Notes: generated by a model not told the origin, from the sequence alone. DNA of 64,000 nucleotides from an uncultured Nitrososphaerales archaeon (GCA_963713605.1 CAVQMO010000005.1:128001-192000), one strand, 5' to 3'. Counted from the first letter of the stretch, positions 1 to 35,042 are shown. Translations and numbers: made by a program.

Positions 1-1596
1 TCTAATAGCGTTTCTGCTTATCACTTCTATTACCTGATCCGTCTTTTCTGGATAGTATTTCAATAGACCACTCATACCAAGGATAGCTTGTATCGGTGTT
101 TTTAACTCATGAGCTGCAATACTGATAAACTCTTTTTGCATTCTATCTGCTTTCTTTAATTCTTCAACCAGCATGCGTTCATTCCAAAGTAATTCGAAGA
201 CTGACTCGAAAGAGTCAACGGTCGCTCTTCTATTAGAGTATACCACTAGACCAATTGCATCTGAGAATTTATCAGCGTTTGGTTTCTTGAGCTCTGCTCT
301 AAGAAACTTTTCACGGTCAATTATGTACATGCCGTAGGGAGAGCTGTTCCCATCTAGTATTTTGATATCTGGTGCGTTCTCCATTATTTTTCTCTGAATT
401 CCTAAATTATCATCAGACAATGGACAGATAATCTTTACATTCGCTCCATTCTGTGATGCCCTCACAAGATAATCAATCATACCTAGTCTATCGATCCTCA
501 CCATCGCTTTATCGTTAGGCAGGAAGATTAGGGCTTCTTTGCTTGTAGATTTTGTCATATCAACAAGGATCTGACTTGCTTTTTCGTTGTCAGTGATTAC
601 CTCATAAAATTCTGCTTCGGTTCCTTCTTCAATCTCTCGTATTCTGTCTACTGCATCAATTCCACTCTCCCATAATCGTTGAAAAACGGAAGAAAAGTGC
701 TTTATATATTGAGATTCGTTGCTTAATAGAAGGCTTTGAACAACTTTTCCATTCTCCATCTTCTCTATAGTAACGGCTATTTTCTTATCTGAAACACCAA
801 AGCTCATTGGAGGCAGATTTCTAACATGCTTAATCCTTATACCATGATCTAGATATAGCTTGACCAGCTCTAGATTTTCGTTATCTATATTGGTAATGTA
901 TCTAAGACCTTTGTGATCTCCTCTCTTTTGTTTATCTAATAACTTTTTCTTAATGTCAAAGAAGTGTTTGTGACTATATTGCATCCCACCTGAGGTTAGA
1001 CAAGTATCAAGTTCATTTGAGCTAGCGGTAAGAGAATAAATCTCTCTTATAATCTCGTCTGAATTATCTATTATAACGGTTTCATAACGTATAATTCCTT
1101 CTTCAATCTCTCGTATTCGATGCTCTGCGGGGATCGTTTTACTCCATAAGGTTTCAAAAACGTACTTTTGATGTTCAATTAATTCCTTGACATTGCTATA
1201 GATGATCTGTGCTGCTGACTCTCCAGCTTCATGGAAGGTAGCAGGAGCAATGTATCCTGTTTCACTGATGTAAAAGTTTCCCTTAATTCCATCTAAATGT
1301 CGAAGCTCGTCAACCATCGTCATGATCTGTTTGCAATAAGAGATGTTATCTTTGGTAATCTCAGTAACATATCTCAGTTTAACACCCCTCTTTTTAGCAG
1401 CAAGAAAAGCTTCCTTTAATAATAAAATGTCGATTGCTAATGAAGGTCGAGTGTAGTCAACACAGGCATCGATTCTACTATCAGATTGGTGAAAGAAGTG
1501 TAATATAGCATTCATTACAACGTCAACTCCATGAAAAACCTCAGTAGCCTCCCTAATTATTTTTCTATCACTTTGATGAGAACCCGACAGTGTCAA
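1..1596 (-). CDS. Sensor histidine kinase (HisKA) with long cytoplasmic N-terminal region; C-terminus runs off the window
   Basis: Manual minus-strand translation from TTG 1596 gives ...MQKEFISIAAHELKTPIQAILG... (H-box). TATA-like element near 1620-1627. Not in the ORF track because it is open-ended. Confidence 0.9.
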   Translation of the reverse strand, partial: MTLSGSHQSDRKIIREATEVFHGVDVVMNAILHFFHQSDSRIDACVDYTRPSLAIDILLLKEAFLAAKKRGVKLRYVTEITKDNISYCKQIMTMVDELRHLDGIKGNFYISETGYIAPATFHEAGESAAQIIYSNVKELIEHQKYVFETLWSKTIPAEHRIREIEEGIIRYETVIIDNSDEIIREIYSLTASSNELDTCLTSGGMQYSHKHFFDIKKKLLDKQKRGDHKGLRYITNIDNENLELVKLYLDHGIRIKHVRNLPPMSFGVSDKKIAVTIEKMENGKVVQSLLLSNESQYIKHFSSVFQRLWESGIDAVDRIREIEEGTEAEFYEVITDNEKASQILVDMTKSTSKEALIFLPNDKAMVRIDRLGMIDYLVRASQNGANVKIICPLSDDNLGIQRKIMENAPDIKILDGNSSPYGMYIIDREKFLRAELKKPNADKFSDAIGLVVYSNRRATVDSFESVFELLWNERMLVEELKKADRMQKEFISIAAHELKTPIQAILGMSGLLKYYPEKTDQVIEVISRNAIR

Positions 1597-1756: not shown

Positions 1757-1988
1757 TTGTTCGTAGTTCCTGTACATTTCAGCAGAGCGCAATATTATGT
1801 TAGCACACCGCAAGCAGTTGCTAGAGTATAACAATGGATGCATTGCAATTAATCCGGTCAAAGATGGCAAATTATTCACTGCCCTGCTCACTTCCGTGGA
1901 AAATGGCGAAGGTGCACTAGACAAGGAAGCAACAAGCGATGCAGACGTCCTCGATTCCCTTCGTATGTCGTTGCAGTTCTGGCACTGA
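1757..1988 (+). pseudogene. 3'-terminal fragment of a putative terminase large subunit-like gene (copy 1, longest)
   Basis: LFVVPVHFS / frameshift / MLAHRKQLLEY...KLFTALLTSVENGEGALDKEATSDADVLDSLRMSLQFWH*. Aligns with four other fragments in the window. TerL identity is inferred from their HDDxxDA motif. Confidence 0.6.
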
Positions 1989-2219
1989 ACCTTATGCTAT
2001 GACGCGAAGCAGTAGTAAGGCTGGCAATATTAATATTCTTTAATGTTAATCAATGGCCAATCGACCGACATGATAGGGTTGCTTGATAGGAAACGAATCC
2101 CGGCATCGTAGCAGAGGCAATACATAATATCTTAAAAATATCCGAAATCAACAATGAGGATCCATCGAAGCTTTAGAATGAGGCAACTAGAGCCTGACTC
2201 CAGTTTTATGTTACAGAGG

Positions 2220-2255
2220 CACGTATTCAGGTTGTCCATGCAGTTCTGGCACTAG
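2220..2255 (+). pseudogene. TerL-like 3' fragment (copy 2)
   Basis: CAC GTA TTC AGG TTG TCC ATG CAG TTC TGG CAC TAG = HVFRLSMQFWH*. Confidence 0.5.
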
Positions 2256-2332
2256 GTTTGTGTCGAGCCCAACTCACAGATAAGAGACGATAGTAGCCAG
2301 AACCGAAAATACTACTTTTGTCCCGAGTCTTG

Positions 2333-2899
2333 TCAATCCTGAGGGAATGCCTCATCAATCAATTTATTCACAGGCTCTCCTGAAGGTAAGGGAGCATTTC
2401 TGTCAAGCTCGTATTTGAATATGTCAGGAAAATTTATGTCCAAAATCACATTTCTACCAACCGCAATTATATGGGACTTTGGTATATCAAATCTCGAATT
2501 CGAATATCCGAACACAACTATCTTGTCATTTGTTTCTTTCATAACATGCCCCACATCGTCTTCATTATTAGCCCTGACTCCTTTATTGAACAATGACATT
2601 GGATACTTTCCTTCATAAGTTCCAAGATCTACCACTTTATCGTCATCTGGCCACGGGTCTTTCCTGCTAGTGGGTAAGGGTTCCTTTCGGCTAACGGTAT
2701 ATTTTTTGATTATATCCGCAAATGGGAGTCCGATAAGAACGTTTCCGCCCACCTGCTGTATTTCTTTGATCGGGATGTCGTATCTTTCTTGTTTTCCACC
2801 AAAAACTACTACTTTATCAGGGGTTTCTCTAACTACATGCCCTATGTGAGGAGCGTCTAATGCCTTCACACCCTTATTGAAATATTTGCCCGATGTCAA
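2333..2899 (-). CDS. Hypothetical protein with two tandem PRC-barrel-like repeats
   Basis: Internal duplication FNKGVKA..HIGHVVRET.DKVVVFG...RYDIP / FNKGVRA..DVGHVMKET.DKIVVFG...RFDIP. Confidence 0.75.
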   Translation of the reverse strand: MTSGKYFNKGVKALDAPHIGHVVRETPDKVVVFGGKQERYDIPIKEIQQVGGNVLIGLPFADIIKKYTVSRKEPLPTSRKDPWPDDDKVVDLGTYEGKYPMSLFNKGVRANNEDDVGHVMKETNDKIVVFGYSNSRFDIPKSHIIAVGRNVILDINFPDIFKYELDRNAPLPSGEPVNKLIDEAFPQD

Positions 2900-3027
2900 A
2901 CCTGGTAATATTCATCAACCTCGGGTTTTAAATAGTTGCCTAGGCATTCGAATGTTTCCGAAGATGTATTATCCTAGGTTTAAGAATATTCGATGCTAGA
3001 GGCAAATTCATTGTAACAATTCTTATT

Positions 3028-3564
3028 TTGTTACATTTTGGGTCTTCAAGCAAGAATTGTTTTAAGTATGAACCAACTAATAATACGTTGTACTTGAGCT
3101 TAGAAGGGATAGATTCTTCCACACAAGCTGAAGATAACCGTTTGTTTGATGATGACGCTCGAAGTGTTGGGGTGACCAAACCAGACCATTCACATAAAAT
3201 TCTGGTGGTAGATGATGAGCAAGACATAGTCTTCACGTTGAAGACTATCTTAACTGAGGCTGGGTTTTCTGTAGACGCCTTCACCAATCCTTCGGTTGCA
3301 TTCGAAATGTTTAGACCTGAAAAGTATGAGTTAATCATCTTGGACATCAGAATGCCAGGTCTCAATGGATTTGAATTGTATATGAAATTGTTGGAACAGG
3401 ATACTTCTATCAAAGTATTGTTCCTGACAGCCGTTAACGAATTCTCAATGTATGCTAAATTCAAGAGTAGTGTATCTCCAATGTCAGGCAAAAGATATTA
3501 TTTGCAAAAACCCGTAGACTTTACGAAGCTATTGCAACGCGTTGACGACATGTTAAGTCTTTGA
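3028..3564 (+). CDS. Stand-alone response regulator receiver protein (true start probably ~3088-3094)
   Basis: ILVVDDE, LDIRMPGLNG, FLTA and QKP receiver motifs. Confidence 0.9.
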   Translation: MLHFGSSSKNCFKYEPTNNTLYLSLEGIDSSTQAEDNRLFDDDARSVGVTKPDHSHKILVVDDEQDIVFTLKTILTEAGFSVDAFTNPSVAFEMFRPEKYELIILDIRMPGLNGFELYMKLLEQDTSIKVLFLTAVNEFSMYAKFKSSVSPMSGKRYYLQKPVDFTKLLQRVDDMLSL

Positions 3565-3713
3565 CGAATTACATTTTGCGTTGCCTGGTAGGTTTTAGTT
3601 GAAAATAATCTATTTCATGGGCGTCTATCTGCGCAAAGTCAAGAGACAGGGTGTTGGTATTGGTATTGGTATTGGTGGAAAGGTTCATCTACGACTGTGT
3701 ATATCACTAAACC

Positions 3714-4079
3714 ATGAGAGTGACTGCCACGGTCCAGCGGCAAGAAATTGATAAAGCCGACAACCACTCGGTAACTGAAAATTACCTAACGCTAAAGGAT
3801 ATTTCACCAAAATGGTTCGAGAGGCTATTCGGTAAAGAAATGAGCCTTCCCTTCCCTTTATCTCCAGTTTGGTTTAAATGGTATTTTGATTTGGATTCAC
3901 CTACTAAATGTATAGTAGGAGAAGCACATGGTTATTCCTCTTCGTACGAACAGACGTGTAAAGAATGCGATCGATTGGGGTGGAGTTTTGGTAAATCCTT
4001 TTTTCTCCGATCACGCGCAAGACTAGAGGACGACGTCAGCGAATTCATCCATCATTGGAACACAAAGCATTTAAGATGA
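3714..4079 (+). CDS. Hypothetical protein with Cys/His motif (CIVGEAHG...CKEC)
   Basis: Intact 121-aa ORF with ATG start and a plausible metal-binding motif. Confidence 0.65.
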   Translation: MRVTATVQRQEIDKADNHSVTENYLTLKDISPKWFERLFGKEMSLPFPLSPVWFKWYFDLDSPTKCIVGEAHGYSSSYEQTCKECDRLGWSFGKSFFLRSRARLEDDVSEFIHHWNTKHLR

Positions 4080-4283
4080 TTTCCTTCCGTATGAACTTGG
4101 GGAACTATCTATTCTAGAATTTCTCAGTATTGCCGTTAAACGGGTTTTATTTTAATGGAATGGACATGGCGAGATATTCAGGGAGAGGTCGTTATCAACC
4201 AGTAACATGTCAGCTAAAGTTACTGGCATTGTATTTCATATATGGAGGGGGTCTCTAATATATGCAAATGATTAGCACAGTTG

Positions 4284-4733
4284 TTAAGAGATTGCACCGA
4301 TCCCATGTCCTATGTACCCATTGCTTGTTGCTTCTATTGAATAGCCCTGGGAAATTAATGTCTCAATACAGCCTTCTTGCTGCTGCTTTTTCTCCAAGGA
4401 TAAAGAAATCGCTGCGCTTCCCTCTTGGTCTGTGGTATTTGCTATAGTGCCAGCTAAGGGTGTATTGAACTCGACCAGTGCATCAGGGATAGATCTCATT
4501 GTCATATTATCCCACACCGAAACTAATACAAAGTATGAGCAATTATTTAACTGATTTTTTGCCTGAATGTTATGCTCAATTTTCAATCCTTGCTCAGCGT
4601 GTGCTAAGGGAAATAGATCTGCATTTGAATGGAAATTAGCGAATATTATAGCAAGAATACAGGTGCTCACTATGACGGTAATCTCGACAAGAATCTTTTC
4701 GATATGAAGTGCTCCATTGGGTTTAAGATACAT
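4284..4733 (-). CDS. Secreted/membrane-anchored hypothetical protein with small beta-sandwich-like domain
   Basis: N-terminal hydrophobic helix; IPDALVEF...TTDQEGSAAI; TATA-like TTTTATAA near 4758-4765. Confidence 0.6.
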   Translation of the reverse strand: MYLKPNGALHIEKILVEITVIVSTCILAIIFANFHSNADLFPLAHAEQGLKIEHNIQAKNQLNNCSYFVLVSVWDNMTMRSIPDALVEFNTPLAGTIANTTDQEGSAAISLSLEKKQQQEGCIETLISQGYSIEATSNGYIGHGIGAIS

Positions 4734-5127
4734 TTAACTCAATACTAGTCGGAATCTTTATAAAAACTGACGTGAGTGATAATTAGAAGAAAAGAAGTTA
4801 ATCCTAAATCAATAGTATTCTTCCTACCTAGATCTAAATGGTGATTCCAAACATTGGTAAGGATGATAGTTCATAATCTAGTGCGAATTTCGGGTCACAC
4901 CGGATCATTCCATAACAAACCCTAAATCGATGAAACGACATCATATCTCCAATGGAAGGAAGAAACAAACAATTGTTCCATGACTTCTTTAAGAATAAAA
5001 ACACAGATAAGGACATCATGTCCTCCGTCTTAAGCTAATTAATTTTGCCTATCCTCAAGTTATACTACGGTGCATGCTTGGAAAGGGTAAATGGTTATCA
5101 ATATGCATATTATACATATATGTTGTC

Positions 5128-5275
5128 ATGTTTGCAAAGGCTCGCTGCCAGATTGTGCAACGATCAGGTAAGGTTTGCATTGCGACATCTGAGGACCAAG
5201 CATCCAGAAGTTTTAAGCGACAAGGACGTAGTTAGGCTTAATATGCCGCAGATCATGAAAAGATTCTTCGTTTAA
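5128..5275 (+). CDS. Small C2H2 zinc-finger protein (one-base frameshift)
   Basis: MFAKARCQI + extra G + CNDQVRFALRHLRTKHPE...; CxxC...HxxxxH. Confidence 0.5.
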
Positions 5276-5950
5276 CGTATTTACCGATGAATGTTTCTCG
5301 CAATTTGCTACAGCCATCTACACTCGTGTTTATGAATGCTTCGTTTGGCCGGATCCACACGTGACAGCGTCGTGTCTACTATCAGGATTGGTTCTTGAAT
5401 TTAACGATGTGAAATCTAAGATGTCTCTGCCAGTAGTATTTGCTAAATTCAAATCATACTACCTGAGTAATTAGATACTGTCAAATTTAATCTAGTCATT
5501 AAAAACTCAACGGAAATGATACTACACATCGGTCTAAGAATCAAACTCCTCTTAGCTTTCGAAGGTTGATTAATTAGACTTGTGCCATGCCCGACACTGG
5601 AGATAGTCTCCTATCCTGTGGCGGAGCTGGTCAGGCTCATTCGGGGATGACATAGGTACAGTGTGTACGCAGCAAAAAGTAATGATTTTCCTAATAATAC
5701 TATCACATTATCAGAAAGATTTCTTTATAATAATTATTATGTAGACTCGACTGACCTTAAATCGTCCGTCGATTGAATGAATTCATTCGATTCAAGGCCC
5801 GATGAGTAACGGATTAAACCTAATATCAGACTGAAATGTCATTGCAATGACATCCTAAAAGCATAAATATATTCCATAGAAGAATTCTGACATTAAAGTA
5901 ATAGCCAGATCTCACAATCTCAGATAAACAAGAATAATTAACTGGTTCTC

Positions 5951-6623
5951 ATGACGAGACTGAAGGGTATTTGTTCGTTTCAAATTATCTTGTTCATAGT
6001 ATCATTATCTTTAGTTGCGATATTGATTTCATTCACTACCGTCGAGGAAGTAAGTGCGAGCAGTAGACTGGATTTGAATAGGAGATCTATTGACATTGAT
6101 ATTGATATTTGTATAAGGTGTGATTCGCCTGTTCCTGGCCCACCTGGTCCTCAAGGTCCTGCTGGCGAAGAGGGACCAACAGGACCCCAAGGTGAGACAG
6201 GCGCTACAGGACCCGCGGGAACAACGGGACCGCAGGGACCCCAGGGTGCGACAGGTGCGGACGAGGCCGCTACAGGATCACGCAGGACCGCAAGGACCCC
6301 AGGGTGAGATAGGTGCTACTGGACCAGCAGGACCTGATAAAATTTTAGAAAAGAGGCAGGCCGTATCTCAATCTCCTCCTGGCAGTATCCCTATTGTCCA
6401 ACCAGGAGGAACATTTACAGCCAATGCTGAATGCAATTCTGATGAGATAGTTACGGGTGGTGGATATTCTATCTCCTCCGGAGGACTCATAAGTGTTGCG
6501 TTCCAAGGAGAAACGGTCACGGATTCTATCCCTGCGTGGACTGTAACGGGTACAAATATAGGTGATACTCTATTCGTGTATCAAGCATTTGCAGAATGCG
6601 TAAAACTAGTCGACGCACCCTGA
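5951..6623 (+). CDS. Secreted collagen-like (Gly-X-Y) protein with C-terminal globular domain, frameshifted
   Basis: Signal peptide; [16 protein letters not shown]... repeats in ORF 5951 continue as [10 protein letters not shown]...[12 protein letters not shown] in ORF 6120. Confidence 0.8.
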
Positions 6624-6662
6624 CTCGACCATCCTCTCTCCTTTTCTTTAAATTTTCTAGTC

Positions 6663-6788
6663 TTAATGCCAGAACATTAGACTCAATCTGAAAGCATCAA
6701 AGCATTCATCATGTGAAGTTGTTTCCTTATCCAATGATCCCGTTCCATCTTCAACCTCTGTTCTAAGCGCAGTGATTAGCTTCGGATG
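6663..6788 (-). pseudogene. TerL-like 3' fragment (copy 3)
   Basis: HPKLITALRTEVEDGTGSLDKETTSHDECFDAFRLSLMFWH*; begins 6 nt after the cadD stop; no start codon. Confidence 0.65.
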
Positions 6789-6794
6789 CCTACA

Positions 6795-7438
6795 CTACCC
6801 AATGAGAAACGCTTGTGCTAGGATATATATTCCAAGTCCGATGAGCACAAATGGCATCACTACATGTCCTATACGGCGTATTCTCGAAGCAATCAATGGG
6901 TGATTTACAAGATAATATGCTGCTATACACCATACCGCAGTTATTAACATAAAAACTACTATTAGTGTAGTAACTTGACCTATAGAGTTATACTGTGCGA
7001 ACATAGGAGTATAGACCCCAATGTTGTCACCTCCATTTGAAAAAGTTACAGCAGCAACAGCCAGAAAAGGTAGATACTGTTTGTTCCTTCTTCTTCTATT
7101 GTTGCTCTCTTTTTGCTGCATCCATCGAAGGAGGGGCAGATGCCCTTTCTCCTTTGATTATGATCTGAACTAGTCTGCTAGTGCCTATTGCTATCGGCAC
7201 TATGCCTAGTAACCCTATGATATATGGCGGAACTATTAGTGAGATAAGCGAACCAAGTGCACTTATAGCGATAAGCAAATATTCCGATATACTGACCCAA
7301 TACTATCTGTCTAGTTGGAAAGGTCATGGAAGAAGAACAGGAAGAAGAAAAGAACATCATAAGCACAAAAATATCGTCAATATTAGTAGCAACGAAGGCT
7401 GAGATACCTATTGCTATTAGACTCATAAGGTCTGTCAA
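6795..7438 (-). CDS. cadD: Cadmium resistance transporter (CadD family), split by frameshifts
   Basis: FVATNIDD..., GQYIG, LLGIVPIAIG, VTFSNGGDNIGVYTP motifs across three overlapping ORFs. Confidence 0.85.
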
Positions 7439-7535
7439 CTCTCACTAACTCTTCTTCCTGTATTCTACAAGAGTCTTAAGTATGGCTAATGCGAGAATAA
7501 AAGTGATAACCTGAAAACATCAAACAAATCATCGT

Positions 7536-7862
7536 GTGAGGTTGCTTCTTTGTCTAAAGACCCTTCGCCATTCTCTTCTCCGTAGTATTTTTAAGCGAAA
7601 TCGGCCAGGTACAACTGAAAAATTGAATGCTGAGGAAGCCAAGGCATTGTTGAAAGAGAGAGGTATATCAGTTATGAATGTGCCTCACGGCTATATGGTA
7701 AAAGTATCCAAAAGGGAAGGCAGTCCGTCACGCCGTATCGATTTGGATGAAATGAATGCGATCCTGGCATTAGGCATGATTAGACTGCTTGCAGTTGAGG
7801 ACACTGTTGGAGACATCCTTATCGAAGTACTAAATAGATTAATGCCAGAACATCAAAGATAA
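7536..7862 (+). CDS. Hypothetical protein (start probably ~7624); 3' end overlaps the antisense TerL-like fragment
   Basis: ORF track; TATA-like TTTTAAG near 7589. Confidence 0.4.
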   Translation: MRLLLCLKTLRHSLLRSIFKRNRPGTTEKLNAEEAKALLKERGISVMNVPHGYMVKVSKREGSPSRRIDLDEMNAILALGMIRLLAVEDTVGDILIEVLNRLMPEHQR

Positions 7863-7940
7863 TCTAAACACGTCCATTAGATCATCATGGCTAATTGCTT
7901 CCTTGTCTAATGAGCCTTCTCCATTACCAAACGCTGTCTG
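7839..7940 (-). pseudogene. TerL-like 3' fragment (copy 4)
   Basis: QTAFGNGEGSLDKEAISHDDLMDVFRLSLMFWH*. Confidence 0.65.
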
Positions 7941-8162
7941 ACCAAAGAGAAGACTAATAATCTAGGCTTTTGATTTGGTTCATTAAGATAGTGGATAATC
8001 AAGAAATATGCGCTGGCCTAGATAACCATTGGGGAGGCTACCGTGTTACTTGATATAGGCAGAGCCCACGACGGTCTAACCTTGCTTGGTTCTGGCATTT
8101 TACGCTCAGGATTTAGTTATCTTGAACTAGTAACAGTCGTTAGTTACGCCGGTGCGTATCTG

Positions 8163-8450
8163 TTAGGTGTAAGAACGGTTAAACTTGTGAACTGGACTAC
8201 GTCGTACAATTGTGTATGCCTTGTATTTTCTTGTCGCGTTATAGATTCCATACTTATCTTGTCTCATCCATCCGATGTCTTTAAGGAAATTAGCAATTCC
8301 AGAAATTAATTTTGTATCATTGTCAAAGTCCATGGATATCCCCTCTATAGTCTCATGCTTGTTTACTAGACGGTCTAGTACGTTTCTTGCTAACGCCAGG
8401 CCAGAAAGTTGTTTATTATCAGTAGTTCCTACAGGTTGTGTCGAGGAAAT
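8163..8450 (-). CDS. Putative winged-helix-like small protein, start codon unclear
   Basis: 96-codon open frame ...LARNVLDRLVNKHETIEGISMDFDNDTKLISGIANFLKDIGWMRQDKYGIYNATRK... Confidence 0.4.
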   Translation of the reverse strand: MSSTQPVGTTDNKQLSGLALARNVLDRLVNKHETIEGISMDFDNDTKLISGIANFLKDIGWMRQDKYGIYNATRKYKAYTIVRRSPVHKFNRSYT

Positions 8451-8554
8451 TCATCTTACCCACCATTGTAATGATATACAGCCTACCTTTTCTCTCCTGA
8501 TATCTTATGATAGTACTCTTTCTTATAGTTGCCTGTTTGATATCATTGTTAGGA

Positions 8555-8720
8555 GGAAACGAAAGATAGGACGACCGCGAGGGCTAGACCATTGGTCGTC
8601 CTATCCTATTTGTCAATGCATTCTGTTACGACGTCAGTCAGGTGCCATTATCATGAATAAAAGGTATTCCGGAACATGGTTACCCGTGATTTATAATAAA
8701 AACAGACCTAATTGCGTAAC
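8555..8720 (-). ncRNA. Candidate promoter + hairpin sRNA unit 1
   Basis: TTCCGGAA-N4-TTTTATT, then perfect 12-bp stem GATAGGACGACC (8565-8576)/GGTCGTCCTATC (8594-8605), then a U-rich tail. Confidence 0.4.
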
Positions 8721-8754
8721 AAGCAAGAATTGTTACACAATTAGGTAATTATTA

Positions 8755-8911
8755 TTCAAAAGAAAGATAGGTTAGAGCGCGATTGCCGTCCTACCTGTCA
8801 ATGCACGATATCCCACTTTACATTGCGCTTTATAGTAATAAATAAAAGACATTCCGGAACTTGATTACCTTTATTTCTAGAAAAGGTAGTACGACCAGGG
8901 AATTTGGTAAC
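8755..8911 (-). ncRNA. Candidate promoter + hairpin sRNA unit 2 (diverged tandem copy of unit 1)
   Basis: TTCCGGAA (8852-8859)-N4-TTTTATT; TGCATTGACA shared with unit 1; imperfect GGTAGG...CCTATC stem; U-rich tail. Confidence 0.35.
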
Positions 8912-9539
8912 AAAAACTTAGCGGTACTACCCTATTCTTTATGCTTGCTTTTGGAGTAGTTCGTCCCGCCTTCAGAATATTTTCATGGGAGGCATTATCT
9001 TTGGTTTTTTTACCTCATCGTATTCTCCATCGGTCTGTATCTTCGGCAAGAATTACGCCATGGTAGGACAATATGATTTGGTAACACTTCAAAGAGTAGC
9101 CTAGGCTACTCCCCTTTATTTATATAGAAAGGCCCCCTTATTCGACGGTTTGCTACTGCGTCTGCTCTGGCTGTTGTTGCCTCTGTCGCTGCTGTTGGTA
9201 GGGAACCAGATACTTCTTGGTAAAGTCTTCGATGAGTAGCTTAGATTGTCGACTCGAGCAGTTTGTTACCATTTTATCTTGCATCTAATTATTTTCCCGT
9301 TTGTCAAGGGCATCAAATCGTCCTCGTTGGTCTATAAATAACGCTAGATATCGCTGTCCTCGCTTTGAAATTCGATACTGGTAGGGCCCTGTAAATTCAT
9401 CTGAATATTGCCAAAGCAAGAATTGTTTCTTACTAATTCATTCAGACATTGGTTAACACAAGCACGTGACCGACTTGGTAGCCTGTGAGCGATCTCTACT
9501 GGAGGTAATTCTGTGAAGAGAGTGAATTGAGTAAATTCA

Positions 9540-9866
9540 TCAGTTTTTGTAGGTGAGAGTATCGTCAAAATCTGTTGATAGGTCTCCATTTTGTAAGGCA
9601 TCATTCTTATTACTATTTTTATTTTTAACCAGTATATGACCCCATGGGGTGCTAACTCCATCATCGTTCCTATGCTTTTCACAAAAATAGACAATGAATG
9701 TGAAAGGCCGATCCATCATATCTCTAACTGTGATCTCCTTTTCATACTTCGCTTCTTGTTGACAATCGATTACATCACAAGTAATATCGAATAGCATTCG
9801 GTTTAATTTAGGACTAGAACGCGGACGAGTAGGAGGGGCGGCGGGTGAAGACATTGCTAGCCTCAA
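9540..9866 (-). CDS. Small hypothetical Zn-binding protein, virus-like
   Basis: CDVIDC...YFCEKH motif. Confidence 0.5.
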   Translation of the reverse strand: MRLAMSSPAAPPTRPRSSPKLNRMLFDITCDVIDCQQEAKYEKEITVRDMMDRPFTFIVYFCEKHRNDDGVSTPWGHILVKNKNSNKNDALQNGDLSTDFDDTLTYKN

Positions 9867-10137
9867 CCACGAAATAAGTTATTTCACAATTTGATACTGT
9901 ATCGAAGATAAATTAGTACCTGAATTTACTAGTGGAAGAATAATAAACTCATTCTGAATGCCGATCATACCATTTCCTGGGCCTTGGTGGGATTGATGGG
10001 CTTCCTACTTTCATAAATTAGCGGACAGGTTTGGTTAATCCAACCTATCTGCACGATAAAGACTCTTGTTACCCTTATTAGATTTCGACGTGAATATTCA
10101 AAGGATCAACTTATAGATTTATGGTTGCGCTTAATGA

Positions 10138-10188
10138 TTAATGCCAGAAGATTAGACTCATTCGAAATGCATCGAGCAAATCATCATG
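10138..10188 (-). pseudogene. TerL-like 3' fragment (copy 5)
   Basis: HDDLLDAFRMSLIFWH*; nucleotide similarity to 6663-6713 is visible by eye. Confidence 0.6.
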
Positions 10189-11277
10189 ATTCGCAGCATA
10201 GATCCTGCTTCGAGAAGAGATCTATGATTTAATATATAGACTGATAGGCCAGAACTTAAACGAAATCTGTCGGTCTTATTGTCAGATTGAAAGGAACTAG
10301 TTTGATGGCCATCATTATAGTAACTGTTGCTTCTTTAGCCCTTTTACTGGTGCTACTTCCTACCCTGTGGCAAACGCAAAGTATTCAAACAGATCATATA
10401 TAATAAAAATGGATTGATAAGCAGACAACCAGTATGTATGCGATCAGAAACCTGGTTGCCTGACCTATTATTCTTTATGCTTGAAAGTGAGGTTCTTTGA
10501 GTGACTTAAAGGCCTCAACTGCCTGCGACTATATGCACAATATAATATAAAAGTAGATAGAGAAGGACAGCCTACGTGCAAGAATTTAGGAAGGGTGTAG
10601 GCGCCCTTCTCCCCTTGCGAACTGACTGCTTGGATTTAACAATTCTTGATTAACTTCGTCAAGTGACAATTTTATGCTAAGCATAGCTCAATCAATAAAA
10701 TGATTAGCAAGGCTAGGGGGAATCTCTAACCAAACCCCCATACCTAACACTCAAAATGAATACATCAGACTAGGTGTATAGATAGTTAAATAGACCTGCT
10801 TAAGGTCTTTTAATTGTAAAACTTCGAAAAATAGGATTATTGGGATATTTGATTAGTTATTGCCTTAATCATGACATGACATAGCAGTAAAAGTAAAAAA
10901 GTAAATGGAAGATTACTTTGTTATTTATTCCTCTACCTCGGTAACAGTGACCTTAAACTCGGTTAATCCCCAGTTCTTATTCATAACGAATAAACAGTGA
11001 GTCATTCCCTGGGGTTTCCTCTTTGGTATATAGGTTATACTGCGGTGCTGAGTGATCTTCAAATGGCATTTCCTAATTATGGCCTCCAAATGAACCAAAT
11101 GATAACATTAGGTTACAAATTGCCACTGGTCTTCTTCATATGTTACTTTCTGCTGTCCACCATGGAATAGGTCTTTCTTTACTTCGCGAACCAAATACTT
11201 AGGAATTCGTTTTTCCAGGACACTTGGACGTACTTGTTTTCGTTTTCATTATATAATATCATAGTGTTTCGTTTTGC

Positions 11278-12612: not shown

Positions 12613-13169
12613 CTATCATAAGGCTACTCACTAGTGCAAAAATCACGGCAAACCAAATATTGTTTAAAGATAGTTTGCGGTAATCTGACAACTTTGTCAT
12701 TCACTGAATACCCCCTCTTTATAGTTTTTAATTACTTACCTATGGAAACCAATTACAGAAGTATCTATGGAAAAATCATATGTGGTTTCGTTTTACCCAA
12801 ATTTTTGATATGCCGTAAAACTAATCATTTTCCCAAAAGGGGTAGTAGGAGCACAAAATAATTGAATCAAGTCATTAAAGCCTAGGGATAATATTCACAG
12901 CGGCAGGAAAAAATGTTCTGGAGAAGATCATGTAAAAATCTTATATAAAGAGACTCAGTAATATTTCTCCAGAGTGCGAAGATGACCATCGGATGAGATG
13001 GATTTGCATTCACTGTAATAGCATAATGGACTGCACAAACTTTACGGAGTTCATAAAGCAAAGCGACAACAACAAAAACAGCAATCAAGAAGTGAAAGTA
13101 GAATATCACGCTTGGCGACTACTTGCAGACTAGAGTAATGCCCAAACTGTCGCGTCTCCCTGGACACAG

Positions 13170-30634: not shown

Positions 30635-33600
30635 GTGCAAAAGAATGTACAGTATGTACTAGTATGTTTATTAATAAGTCTGACTTTGACCTCTTTTTTT
30701 CGGCTGCTTCGATTTATCGAAGCGCTATGTTCTCCCCGGTGTCAATCTCCCCTATTAGCTCTGTTGTAGCACAAGAAGAAGATGAGGAGGAGGATGACAA
30801 TAAGGATGAAGGCGATAATGCAGAAGATAGTGCAGATAGTGCAGATAGTTCAGATAGTTCAGATAGTGCAGATAGTGCAGATAGTGCAGATAGTGCAGAT
30901 AGTTCAGATAGTTCAGATAGTGCAGATAGTGCAGATAGTGCAGATAATGGCAGACAACAATGACGTAAACGATGCCAATAGCGAGAAGACATCTCAAAGC
31001 AACGAAGTTAGTGGTAACAGCGGGAGTACTTCCTCTTCTCAGCGTTTGGCTGAAAGCAGTAGCAATAACATAAAGAATCCTGATCAGAGTGCACGTCAAG
31101 TTAGCCGAACGTCCGATACTGCAGGCACTGGCGCTGCAGCATCTTCATCTGCAGGCACTGGCGCTGGAGCATCTTCATCTGCAGGCACTGGCGCTGCAGC
31201 ATCTTCATCTTCAGGCTCTGGCGCTGGAGCATCAACAAATTCCCCATTTGCATTCATTCCAGGCTTGGCTCTACCTACAGGCCAGGCTCTACCTCCGAGC
31301 CAGGCTCTACCTCCAGGCCAGACCCCTGGTAGTATTCCAGAGGACAAGTATGTGCAGATGGTAGTGATCCTGTAAGTGGTCAGTGTTCATCACAGGTTCC
31401 AGCTGACCAGTCATGTGCCGATGGTAGTGATCCTGTAGGTGGTCAGTGTTCATCACAGGTTCCAGGCTGACCAGTCATGTGCCGATGGAAGTGAGCCCGT
31501 TGAAGGTCAGTGTTCTTCACAGGTTCCAGCTGACCAGTCATGTGCCGATGGAAGTGAGCCCGTTGAAGGTCAGTGTTCTTCACAGGTTCCAGCTGACCAG
31601 TCATGTGCAGATGGTAGTGATCCTGCAGGCGGTCAGTGTACCGTTCAAGTCCCTGCGGACCAGTCATGTGCCGATGGTAGTGATCCTGTAGGTGGTCAGT
31701 GTTCATCACAGGTTCCAGCTGACCAGTCATGTGCAGATGGTAGTGATCCTGTAGGTGGTCAGTGTTCTTCACAGGTTCCAGCTGACCAGTCATGTGCAGA
31801 TGGTAGTGATCCTGTAGGTGGTCAATGTCCCGTTCAAGTCCCTGCGGACCAGTCATGTGCAGATGGTAGTGATCCTGTAGGTGGTCAGTGTTCATCACAG
31901 GTTCCAGCTGACCAGTCATGTGCAGATGGTAGTGATCCTGTAGGTGGTCAATGTACCGTTCAAGTCCCTGCGGACCAGTCATGTGCAGATGGTAGTGATC
32001 CTGTAGGTGGTCAATGTACCGTTCAAGTCCCTGTGGACCAGTCATGTGCAGATGGTAGTGATCCTGTAGGTGGTCAATGTACCGTTCAAGTCCCTGCGGA
32101 CCAGTCATGTGCAGATGGTAGTGATCCTGTAGGTGGTCAGTGTTCATCACAGGTTCCAGCTGACCAGTCATGTGCCGATGGTAGTGATCCTGTAGGCGGT
32201 CAATGTACCGTTCAAGTCCCTGCGGACCAGTCATGTGCAGATGGTAGTGATCCTGTAGGTGCTGAATGTCAAATAACAAAACCGCCGAATGATTGTCCTC
32301 CTAATAGTAATAGAATAAACCATGATGGGGCTAAATTCTGTGTGTATCCTCAGAATGAGAACAATGAATGCCAGTACGGGGATATAGCGGGATTACCGGG
32401 AAACTGTAGAATCGTGCCGCTTGAAACACGCTCGTGTTGGGATAGCCCCCAGAATAGCGCTGGACAGTGTGTTATTGACACTCTACCTGCGGACCAGTCA
32501 TGTGCCGATGGTAGCGAGCCCGTTGAAGGTCAGTGTTCATCACAGGTTCCAGCTGACCAGTCATGTGCCGATGGTAGCGAGCCCGTTGAAGGTCAGTGTT
32601 CATCACAGGTTCCAGCTGACCAGTCATGTGCAGATGGTAGTGATCCTGTAGGTGGTCAATGTACCGTTCAAGTCCCTGCGGACCAGTCATGTGCAGATGG
32701 TAGTGATCCTGTAGGTGGTCAGTGTTCATCACAGGTTCCAGCTGACCAGTCATGTGCAGATGGTAGTGATCCTGTAGGTGGTCAGTGTTCATCACAGGTT
32801 CCAGCTGACCAGTCATGTGCCGATGGTAGCGAGCCCGTTGAAGGTCAGTGTTCATCACAGGTTCCAGCTGACCAGTCATGTGCAGATGGTAGTGATCCTG
32901 TAGGTGGTCAGTGTTCATCACAGGTTCCAGGCTGGCCAGTCATGTGCAGATGGTAGTGATCCTGTAGGTGGTCAGTGTTCATCACAGGTTCCAGCTGGCC
33001 AGTCATGTGCCGATGGTAGCGAGCCCGTTGAAGGTCAGTGTTCATCACAGGTTCCAGCTGACCAGTCATGTGCCGATGGTAGCGAGCCCGTTGAAGGTCA
33101 GTGTTCATCACGGTTCCAGCTGACCAGTCATGTGCAGATGGTAGTGATCCTGTAGGTGGTCAATGTACCGTTCAAGTCCCTGCGGACCAGTCATGTGCAG
33201 ATGGTAGTGATCCTGTAGGTGGTCAATGTACCGTTCAAGTCCCTGCGGACCAGTCATGTGCAGATGGTAGTGATCCTGTAGGTGGTCAATGTACCGTTCA
33301 AGTCCCTGCGGACCAGTCATGTGCAGATGGTAGTGATCCTGTAGGTGGTCAATGTACCGTTCAAGTCCCTGCGGACCAGTCATGTGCAGATGGTAGTGAT
33401 CCTGTAGGTGGTCAATGCGTAGTACCCGAACCAACACCCGAACCAACACCCGAACCAACACCCGAACCAACACCCGAACCAACACCCGAACCGACAGATG
33501 ATAGTCCAGCACCAGCAGACTCCCCTACTCCAACTGAAGCAGCACCAGCTGCGGTACCAACCGATCTAGCAGCTTGCTTGAGCTCTGGTGTATGTCAGCT

Positions 33601-35042
33601 CGTAAACAGAGCTATTTATCAGAAAGTCTTCACTCCCATAGTACCAGAATACATATTGCAGCTAAGACCAGAGCTGTGCCTTGATATAAATATCAATGAT
33701 GTCGCAAATGAAATACAGGCAATCCCTGGTGTCGCATTGATACATGTCTATGATCTTCCTGGATATCAAGCTGTTTCATTCAGGGGTGACCCAGGTCCTG
33801 AGCTTCTCAACGATCAAAGATTTGTAGATAATAATGCCACCCGAGCTGATAGTAACGCCGAATTAGATCAATCATCAGGTCACACAGCTCAGGTAGCAGA
33901 AGACGTCGATAATAACACGGATATACTCACAGCAAGTCAAGAATTACCAACTGGACTAAAAAGAACCATTCTAGATCTGGCGTTTGCAAATAACACTTTT
34001 ATCGATACTGCAGATAATGCCACCACTACGAACGCAACAATCACTAACGCTACTTCATTGGCTGCATCTTGTGAAATTCAAAGAGTAGTTCCAGTTAGCT
34101 CGGATGCAAATATGTCGCCCTCTGACTTCAATGTGGATATCGCGGTACTAGATACAGGAGTTAGCATGACTCATCCTGACCTAAATGTGTATAGAGATGT
34201 AACCTTTATCAATGGAACTACAAACGGGAACGATGATAACGGGCATGGATCACATGTCGCAGGCATTGCAGCTGCCAAGGACAATGATATAGGTATTGTT
34301 GGCGTCGCTCCTGGAGCAAGAATTTGGGCGATAAAGGTTTGTGATACTACTGGCGAATGTAAGATTACTAACCAAATAAAGGGGATAGAGTATGCTATTC
34401 AACATGCTGATGAAATTGACGTTCTTAATATTAGTATCGAAAATCCGAACTCTCCTGCACTCAACAACATCATAAATGCGGCAGTCAAAGCTGGCATCAC
34501 AGTCCTAGTTTCTGCAGGAAATTGGGGTAAAGATGCTTCGATGACTACTCCAGCTAATAATCCCAATGTACTAACTGTTTCTGCAATAGGTGATAGTGAT
34601 GGGGTGTGCGGTGCGGAAGGGCCTGATCTCATACTTGAAGGCGACAACTCAACGGTAACTGATGATTCATTTGCATTCTTTAGCAACTTCGGTCCAGTAG
34701 TCAAGATCGCAGCACCTGGCGTAAATGTACTTTCGACTTACAATGGTACTGGATATGCCGTAGATAGTGGAACGAGTATGGCAGCGCCGTACGTTACAGG
34801 AGCAGCTGCCAGTATACAAAGCACAACATCCATATTCGATGCCGCCTGAAGTGATATCCGCCGTCTTAGGATCAGGTTCTAAACCAGATACTCCTTGTGA
34901 TGGAGCAGCACATGGTTACTTTTCGGGGGATCTAGACACCTTGGCAGAGCCTCTACTCTACAAGCAGACGACGCCGTCAGCATCGACCGTTACCCCCTCA
35001 TCTTCTCCTGTGAGCCCTGTTCTTTCTAAACTAAATAATTAA
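30635..35042 (+). CDS. Giant secreted subtilisin-like (S8) protease with acidic, Ala/Ser and Cys-rich repeat regions; several frameshifts
   Basis: Signal peptide; catalytic motifs AVLDTG, NGHGSHVAG, SAGN and SGTSMAAP in ORF 33101; overlapping ORFs join into one protein. Confidence 0.85.
30826..30946 (+). repeat. 9-bp coding tandem repeat (GATAGT[G/T]CA; DSA/DSS)
   Basis: About 13 units seen directly. Confidence 0.9.
31350..33420 (+). repeat. 63-bp coding tandem repeat (QVPADQSCADGS[D/E]PV[G/E]GQC[SS/TV]), about 15 + 15 units around a unique Cys-rich insert
   Basis: Counted from translations; insert at ~32270-32485. Confidence 0.95.
33425..33496 (+). repeat. 12-bp repeat encoding a (PEPT)6 linker
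   Basis: CCCGAACCAACA tandem units. Confidence 0.9.

Follow-up and report, generated by a model that had tools for sequence, protein, structure and literature searches.

The region between positions 1,757 and 10,188 of the window (the entire 64,000-nucleotide stretch analysed here, from an uncultured Nitrososphaerales archaeon, GCA_963713605.1 CAVQMO010000005.1:128001-192000) contains six short remnants of the 3′ end of terL, the gene for the large terminase subunit (TerL), which are interspersed with unrelated genes. It is likely that these remnants are the cargo-side edges of capsid-less integrative elements, probably satellites of head-tail viruses, and that the ends were then used for cargo exchange. 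The donors are capsid-less integrase–replicase–putative terS–terL elements of Nitrososphaeraceae, not proviruses.

A first-pass annotation made from the sequence alone had described five fragments ending at a common TerL stop codon. Their coordinates and translations agreed with ours, and a sixth fragment, which had been overlooked, was added. Remnants 1 (1757..1988, ∼77 codons) and 2 (2220..2255, ∼11 codons) lie on the plus strand, and remnants 3 (6663..6792, 42 codons), 6 (7486..7577, 30 codons), 4 (7839..7940, 34 codons) and 5 (10138..10199, 17–20 codons) lie on the minus strand. Remnant 1 contains a frameshift near 1790, so that its first ∼11 codons are in another frame, but its start near 1757 was borne out. 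The pairwise nucleotide identity of the six remnants is 54–80%, and third codon positions differ most in 14 of the 15 pairs, with a tie in the remaining one. This indicates that the remnants diverged while coding and stem from different donors rather than from a recent duplication, as had been proposed. When a 215-aa remnant from the same genome was used as a query, 107 longer homologues were retrieved, mostly of ∼495 aa. The full-length homologues match phrog_2 (E 1e-21 to 1e-23), T4 gp17 was matched by profile, and the top Foldseek matches of an AlphaFold model (pLDDT 87.6) were the terminases of T4, HK97, Sf6 and D6E, isolated nuclease domains included. The remnants are thus 3′ ends of a true TerL gene, the full-length product of which comprises an ATPase and an RNase H-fold nuclease. 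Distant TerL relatives (27–52% identity) sit in real head-tail viruses. Among the relatives, L005 and L041 have matches to major head proteins and L169 has a portal match.

When matches to the protein and DNA profiles were merged, 138 terL 3′ ends were counted in the 4.09-Mb genome. The protein profile gave 142 matches of at least 5 bits (119 of at least 12 bits) and the DNA profile 151 of at least 10 bits, with none for either in the reversed sequence. The first 220 profile positions are covered 4–6-fold and positions 461–480 64-fold. At least 30, 60, 120, 300 and 600 nt are reached by 137, 96, 47, 12 and 5 ends, respectively, and the whole gene is spanned by one. The lengths follow a monotonic, roughly 1/length decay with no preferred value. 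The exact 12-base motif for Phe-Trp-His-stop occurs 86 times, compared with 7–25 occurrences of ten control motifs, which implies that ends still shorter than those detected by the profiles exist. The ends are also clustered, with 70 end neighbours within 5 kb (21 expected), 62 of them on the same strand. With equal-sized queries, the ratio of C-terminal to N-terminal matches was 31/1, 48/12, 119/29, 41/8 and 22/6 in five congeneric genomes and 71/14, 59/26 and 25/11 in genus g22. Other TerL subfamilies, with different C-termini, show the same 3′ bias. Random decay of terL copies was therefore rejected, since N-terminal pieces are far fewer than 3′ ends genome-wide. The family is present in 13/13 relatives within the genus, and TerL-profile matches, some of which are true proviruses, were found in 95/151 genomes of the family and in 14/14 genera; the tallies take in the unpublished genome G013, and the 95/151 count also G145 and G165.

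The nature of the donors became apparent from 159 loci collected from metagenomes and genomes. Recurrent neighbours of terL are an upstream helix-turn-helix (HTH) protein, tyrosine integrases (assigned by PF00589) and varied replicases, while the genes downstream of terL are highly variable. In complete elements the gene order is tRNA, integrase, divergent regulator, replicase, putative terS, terL and cargo. An integrase open reading frame (ORF) is found upstream of terL in 14 of the 30 long loci, in two of them directly behind a tRNA gene, and in some loci it is followed by a divergent winged-helix ORF with weak Pfam matches. The replication module differs between members (D5-like, PriX, MCM or PolB). 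A terS-like profile matched in 75/159 loci; the putative TerS consists of an HTH and two long helices, and TerS PHROG matches were obtained for 4 and 2 of 49 members. Portal and capsid profiles had no match in any of the 159 loci or in the genome. In tblastn searches with viral portals, the only non-viral loci found were L169 and L095, and among 56 downstream ORFs from 67 loci, PHROG identified one portal. The 84 portal-less TerLs form one clade (support 0.78) inside portal-bearing archaeal head-tail viruses, with a soil virus TerL as sister, in a FastTree phylogeny of 96 sequences that used 11 of the 60 viral loci. The donor elements are probably satellites of head-tail viruses, and their packaging would depend on a helper virus. 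In L169:8539-19954 and L095:8433-13062, a TerL of the family is accompanied by a portal gene, and these two loci are candidate helper-type proviruses of soil ammonia oxidisers.

Several further observations concern the elements themselves. Two loci, L179 (G008:C315) and L193, have two terL genes in tandem within 4–8 kb, L179 also with MCM and PolB nearby; such pairs are an intermediate of tandem accretion. Downstream of terL, L240, L249, L251 and L257 share a conserved ORF pair of unknown family (∼155 aa, reverse, and ∼240 aa, forward), of which the larger ORF had no PHROG or Atlas match; a 251-aa ORF downstream of some terL genes likewise had no usable match in the ESM Atlas. The only near-full terS–terL pair of the window subfamily in this genome (G000:C10:220816-222726) is frameshifted and has a ParB-methyltransferase remnant upstream. 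In 20 of 25 terS-like loci of the genome no terL piece lies directly behind terS, and nine integrase matches are in open frames of at least 323 codons, so terS-only, PICI-like elements may coexist in the genome.

In the sequence of events that we propose, elements would first integrate repeatedly in one orientation, the newest being the most intact; this layout is observed, whereas the satellite lifestyle is inferred. Around near-full terL genes in 118 loci, extra 3′ ends lie downstream in 14 cases and upstream in one (p=0.001), and in this genome tRNA genes stand at the head of arrays, in two cases together with an integrase piece. Both observations fit repeated integration that pushes older material outward. 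About ten snippets of the 3′ end of a tRNA-Met gene (G000:C10:863769-1020059, C12:108858 and C13:21938-23545) are likely att remnants of repeated integration. The element core would then be deleted and the cargo kept. Since no other core gene lies between terL and the cargo, core loss leaves the terL 3′ end against the cargo, and only these cargo-adjacent bases would survive, eroding toward the stop codon. This step is seen directly in ∼10 of the 138 cases (six ends adjoin an earlier piece of terL with a gap between, and four adjoin terS) and is presumed for the rest. Stop codons interrupt 17 of 57 longer remnants; together with the smooth length decay and the direct terS/terL joins, the stops fit core loss beside kept cargo. 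Among 31 downstream clusters, ten have the same cargo after a long end (at least 225 nt) as well as after a short one (at most 90 nt). Finally, the surviving ends would act as short, diverged direct repeats, their most invariant stretch being the final Phe-Trp-His-stop codons, and homeologous or microhomology recombination within the last ∼10–70 nt would swap, drop or add downstream DNA. Exchange could take place between two remnants or between a remnant and a long terL allele; the pattern is observed, and we infer the recombinase. Two intact Ku proteins are encoded by the host. The outcome would be modular cargo arrays that form without a site-specific cassette recombinase.

Exchange was examined with 195 subfamily ends from this genome and its relatives. 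More than one downstream flank was found behind 11 of 16 upstream clusters, eight of which were clean on inspection. Conversely, the blocks shared by copies of the same cargo (at least 85% identity) end 11–70 nt short of the terL stop codon in 25 of 28 pairs; in 26 of the 28 (13 of 15 cargo clusters), the break lies within both remnants by at least 15 nt. Coding DNA should be conserved at least as well as its flank, so an identity break inside the remnants means that different terL alleles precede the same cargo. In five pairs with a common upstream flank, identity stops between −31 and +11. Two loci share a 120-nt piece (97.5% identity) that runs up to the stop codon and has different DNA on either side. 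The upstream junction segment U0 (7941..8072 in the window), present in 10 copies, fronts at least six different downstream flanks. Genome G005 has the order U0–end–cadD and the window U0–end–Z–end–cadD (cadD and cassette Z are described below), a difference that corresponds to the gain or loss of exactly one end-plus-cargo unit. Upstream cluster U1 was considered as an integrase-to-terL join and rejected, as the integrase piece fronts only one copy. Cargo boundaries in related genomes thus map to the fragments, with crossovers falling within them, and these crossovers provide direct sequence support for the ‘recombination handle’ suggested in the first-pass annotation, except that the donors are capsid-less elements and not viruses.

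Several points weigh against this interpretation. No recognisable core gene was found in the 300 nt upstream of 117 of the 138 ends, and the integrase adjacency of the ends was not above control (3 versus 4). In genus g5 the 3′ bias was weak or absent (13/14 and 19/13), with a distant query that short remnants may escape. A preceding terL end accounts artefactually for two of the 11 multi-flank upstream clusters, and a third is weak; 11 pairs share both flanks, which is plain duplication. The 28 cargo-sharing pairs are related and not independent, and 11 of them involve cassette Z, whose final codons share 21 nt with the terL end; the margin exceeds 30 nt in only 6 of 15 clusters and is soft below that value. 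A triad test agrees with exchange but is weak (15 triads, eight in informative windows). As for the donors, Foldseek gave no match for the putative TerS at E 0.001 or better, and its identity relies on position and the HTH-plus-helices model. Two presumed portals that served as controls, those of L005 and L041, went undetected with PHROG, so a divergent portal could escape, and at least 2.5 kb of downstream sequence was available in only 45 of the 84 portal-less TerL loci. For intact elements an att pair could not be delimited, none being found within the 10-kb flanks.

The most serious rival is that the ends are passive scars only, left by tandem integration and core deletion beside selected cargo and never exchanging, with mosaic junctions as independent illegitimate events that survived at gene borders. 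The ∼1/length decay and the direct core-deletion joins would be expected of scars, and the stop codon of cassette Z itself depends on the last 21 nt of terL (one soil contig retains only ∼19 nt of them). However, near-identical copies of a cargo are preceded by different terL alleles, with identity breaking off within both remnants, and the same junction with the same lesions precedes different, known cargo. Moreover, the ends outnumber tRNA-like snippets (26 matches), terS loci (25, only five of them directly followed by a terL piece) and integrase pieces (43) in the genome 3–5 fold, and most of them (117/138) have no core gene just upstream. We therefore regard scars alone as unlikely; repeated integration, which the first-pass annotation had offered as an alternative to the handle, is instead the source of the handles. 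Derivation from ordinary head-tail proviruses is largely excluded, since no portal or capsid remnant was found in the genome and a viral terL precedes a head module rather than variable cargo, even though the family does include viral TerLs followed by head and tail genes. The high copy number and the choice of a viral hallmark gene as a target would suit retention by the host as antiviral decoys or antisense sequences, a role also raised in the first-pass annotation; it found no support and is highly improbable given the stops in 17/57 remnants, the smooth length decay down to ∼12 nt and the lack of an RNA family match. Retroposition with 5′ truncation was rejected as well, because no PF00078 reverse transcriptase match was present in the 87%-complete genome and flanks diverge right after the stop codon.

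Two further explanations assign an enzyme to the ends. In one, TerS and TerL would cut at a pac site within or close to the terL 3′ end, the downstream DNA would be packaged, and the free end would be joined via Ku, the remnants being residual pac sites. Variable 5′ ends, a strong one-way polarity and a terL body found less often than either terS or the 3′ end are compatible with this, as are the host Ku genes (two intact and a fragment; G000:C10:420787-421377 and G000:C11:9462-10028). End joining is uncommon in archaea. We nevertheless consider terminase-made ends quite improbable, because there is no preferred remnant length and no constraint on synonymous sites at the 3′ end: in the last terL windows, the synonymous-codon excess (0.08–0.10) is within the range of the rest of the gene (0.01–0.14) for 79 of 87 intact genes after dereplication, and no peak was seen in 38 long subfamily ends. 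Known pac sites are located within or close to terS rather than at the terL end. In the other explanation, the integrase of the element would recombine at a short core sequence within the final codons of terL, as in an integron. Crossovers do crowd near the stop codon, and the 12-mer is in excess (86 versus 7–25 for controls), but this is very unlikely, since all three stop codons, both Phe and both His codons are used and no bases are conserved past the stop. The same bias is also present in TerL subfamilies with other C-termini, and the integrases sit behind tRNA genes. Judged from sequence, no fixed att, pac or attC-like motif is discernible at terL ends, and the Phe-Trp-His-stop codons are the longest near-invariant stretch. 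No integrase match was found inside the window, where no search with an IntI profile was made; no terminal inverted repeats were found around the remnants, with target-site duplications not systematically searched; and no ERF-family gene was found in this genome, other annealase families not having been searched.

The layout of the window can be described in these terms. Between remnants 2 and 3 lies a block (2325..5275) with 72–82% identity across the genus, which contains ORFs at 2333-2899(−), 3714-4079(+), 4284-4733(−) and 5045-5275(+) and a response-regulator receiver ORF at 3028-3564(+). The terL ends on both sides face this block, as they do in G001, G002, G005 and G008. Because the block is conserved across the genus, the locus represents two arrays converging on it and not one tandem array, and the block is host context, not cargo. 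In G002, the terL at the same place has at least 389 codons before the contig end cuts it, while 42 codons are kept in the window. A near-identical strain, represented by a soil contig, lacks 2190-2226, a deletion that removes a further 37 nt from the 5′ edge of remnant 2. Between the fragments, cadD, the collagen-like gene and cassette Z are cargo. The collagen-like gene (5951..6623, +; PF01391) is frameshifted and convergent on remnant 3, and its flank is also found behind a terL end in G005:C360. Remnant 3 begins directly after the stop codon of the likewise frameshifted cadD-like gene for a cadmium-resistance transporter (6795..7438, −; PF03596), whose counterpart in G005:C408 sits behind another terL end. 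Both genes had been recognised in the first-pass annotation. Cassette Z (7536..7862, +; unique part 7579-7838) is a multicopy small ORF of unknown family with no usable match in the ESM Atlas; its last codons overlap remnant 4 on the opposite strand, and it is present behind several terL alleles. A small Cys-rich ORF (12993..13133, +) is recurrent cargo with 14 further copies in the genome, 11 of them within 1 kb of a terL end, and is preceded by a candidate degenerate seventh remnant of 15 nt (13135..13149, −), identified by eye and below the detection threshold. The segment formerly described as ‘sRNA-like units’ proved to be a degenerate local duplication with a 185-bp spacing (8653..8869), with no Rfam match above the gathering score and no second copy in the genome; the single sub-threshold Rfam match, a chance one, fell in the collagen repeat.

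Contigs from public soil sequencing runs of two studies span several of these joins. Remnants 1–2 are spanned in X1 and remnant 5 in X1 and X3, and in X2 and X3 the contigs enter remnant 3 from the collagen side; none among the pieces listed spans the whole region, and the best-covering run may be the source sample. The joins covered in this way are not assembly artefacts. About 1.2 kb before the window (G000:C5:126547-126824), an integrase fragment is fused to a terL piece near its 3′ end, which is a whole-core deletion in the left array. A histidine kinase with a PLD-like domain (window 1-1596) has many copies in the genus, often near terL loci. Farther away, window 31439-34849 encodes a long Cys-rich tandem-repeat protein, apparently split, with a subtilisin-like region recognised by eye at its end.

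Individual features of this system have parallels elsewhere. NitKor-E1 of Ca. Nitrosopumilus koreensis AR1 is described, in the part of the source available (PMC6563490), as having a tyrosine integrase, TerS and TerL with no other head-tail genes, and is called ‘enigmatic’ and likely a viral relic. The thaumarchaeal combination of integrase, TerS (putative here) and TerL without capsid is common to it and to the elements reported here; however, NitKor-E1 is a single element, whereas the present family occurs in 95/151 genomes, with several intact copies per genome and ∼140 remnants in one genome. According to the accessible text of PMC10085698, phage-inducible chromosomal islands (PICIs) have the order integrase, regulator, primase/replicase and terS, followed by accessory genes, and carry no TerL, while capsid-forming PICIs (cf-PICIs) encode TerL plus capsid, portal and head-tail genes. 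The donor elements resemble PICIs in gene order but are archaeal and have their own TerL, and they differ from cf-PICIs in having TerL without portal or capsid. They are thus neither PICIs nor cf-PICIs in the strict sense, nor integrons, but have a PICI-like layout and leave boundary-like remnants. In the Tycheposon islands of Prochlorococcus, as far as the portion consulted describes them (10.1101/2020.12.28.424599), integrations at tRNA genes push older elements outward and remnants are left among the cargo; those remnants are integrase pieces and tRNA snippets, whereas here the dominant remnant is the end of one gene that doubles as a crossover point. Lambdoid phages, in the sections available of PMC2327257, swap modules via short conserved or 65–78% identical flanks, often with one illegitimate junction. 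That exchange takes place between phage genomes and uses Red-like recombinases, whereas the flanks found here are decayed gene ends scattered over a host chromosome.

Same-orientation units of a boundary plus cargo are also gained, lost and reshuffled in integron cassette arrays and IS26 translocatable units. In contrast to these, terL arrays have no conserved attC-like site or transposase, and their boundaries are terminase-derived and variable in length. The term ‘integron-like cassette accretion island’, used in the first-pass annotation, is therefore apt as an analogy only, and the phenomenon extends across the genome and related genera and is not confined to one island. No description of multicopy terL 3′ remnants was found in the literature searched, from which most subscription journals were out of reach, so that absence from print is not implied. 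The accessible parts of PMC9618062, PMC11849493, PMC13573593 and bioRxiv 2025.02.15.638363 and 2026.08.12.739948 describe neither TerL-bearing capsid-less satellites nor terL remnants. In summary, the system is a variant of PICI-like satellite and additive-island biology that is unusual in scale.

The genomes of soil Nitrososphaeraceae are large and variable, and hardly any vehicles of gene transfer have been described for these archaea; a family-wide class of capsid-less terminase elements has now been identified in them. The decayed terL ends of these elements mark, and apparently reshuffle, accessory cargo, and a terL remnant offers an easy way to date and count the acquisition of cargo. 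In practical terms, terL matches should be left out when proviruses are counted in these genomes. The role of orphan TerS–TerL pairs in thaumarchaeal elements, as raised in the available part of PMC6563490, can now be phrased as testable predictions. We also put forward, tentatively and as somewhat doubtful, that the remnants may constitute a working, genome-wide, integrase-free cassette system, in which downstream blocks would recombine into an intact terS–terL satellite, rebuild the last terL codons and exit in helper-virus particles. If so, the ∼140 ends would be permanently available handles for mobilisation, and would drive the flux of accessory genes and the expansion of genomes in the ammonia-oxidising archaea of soil.

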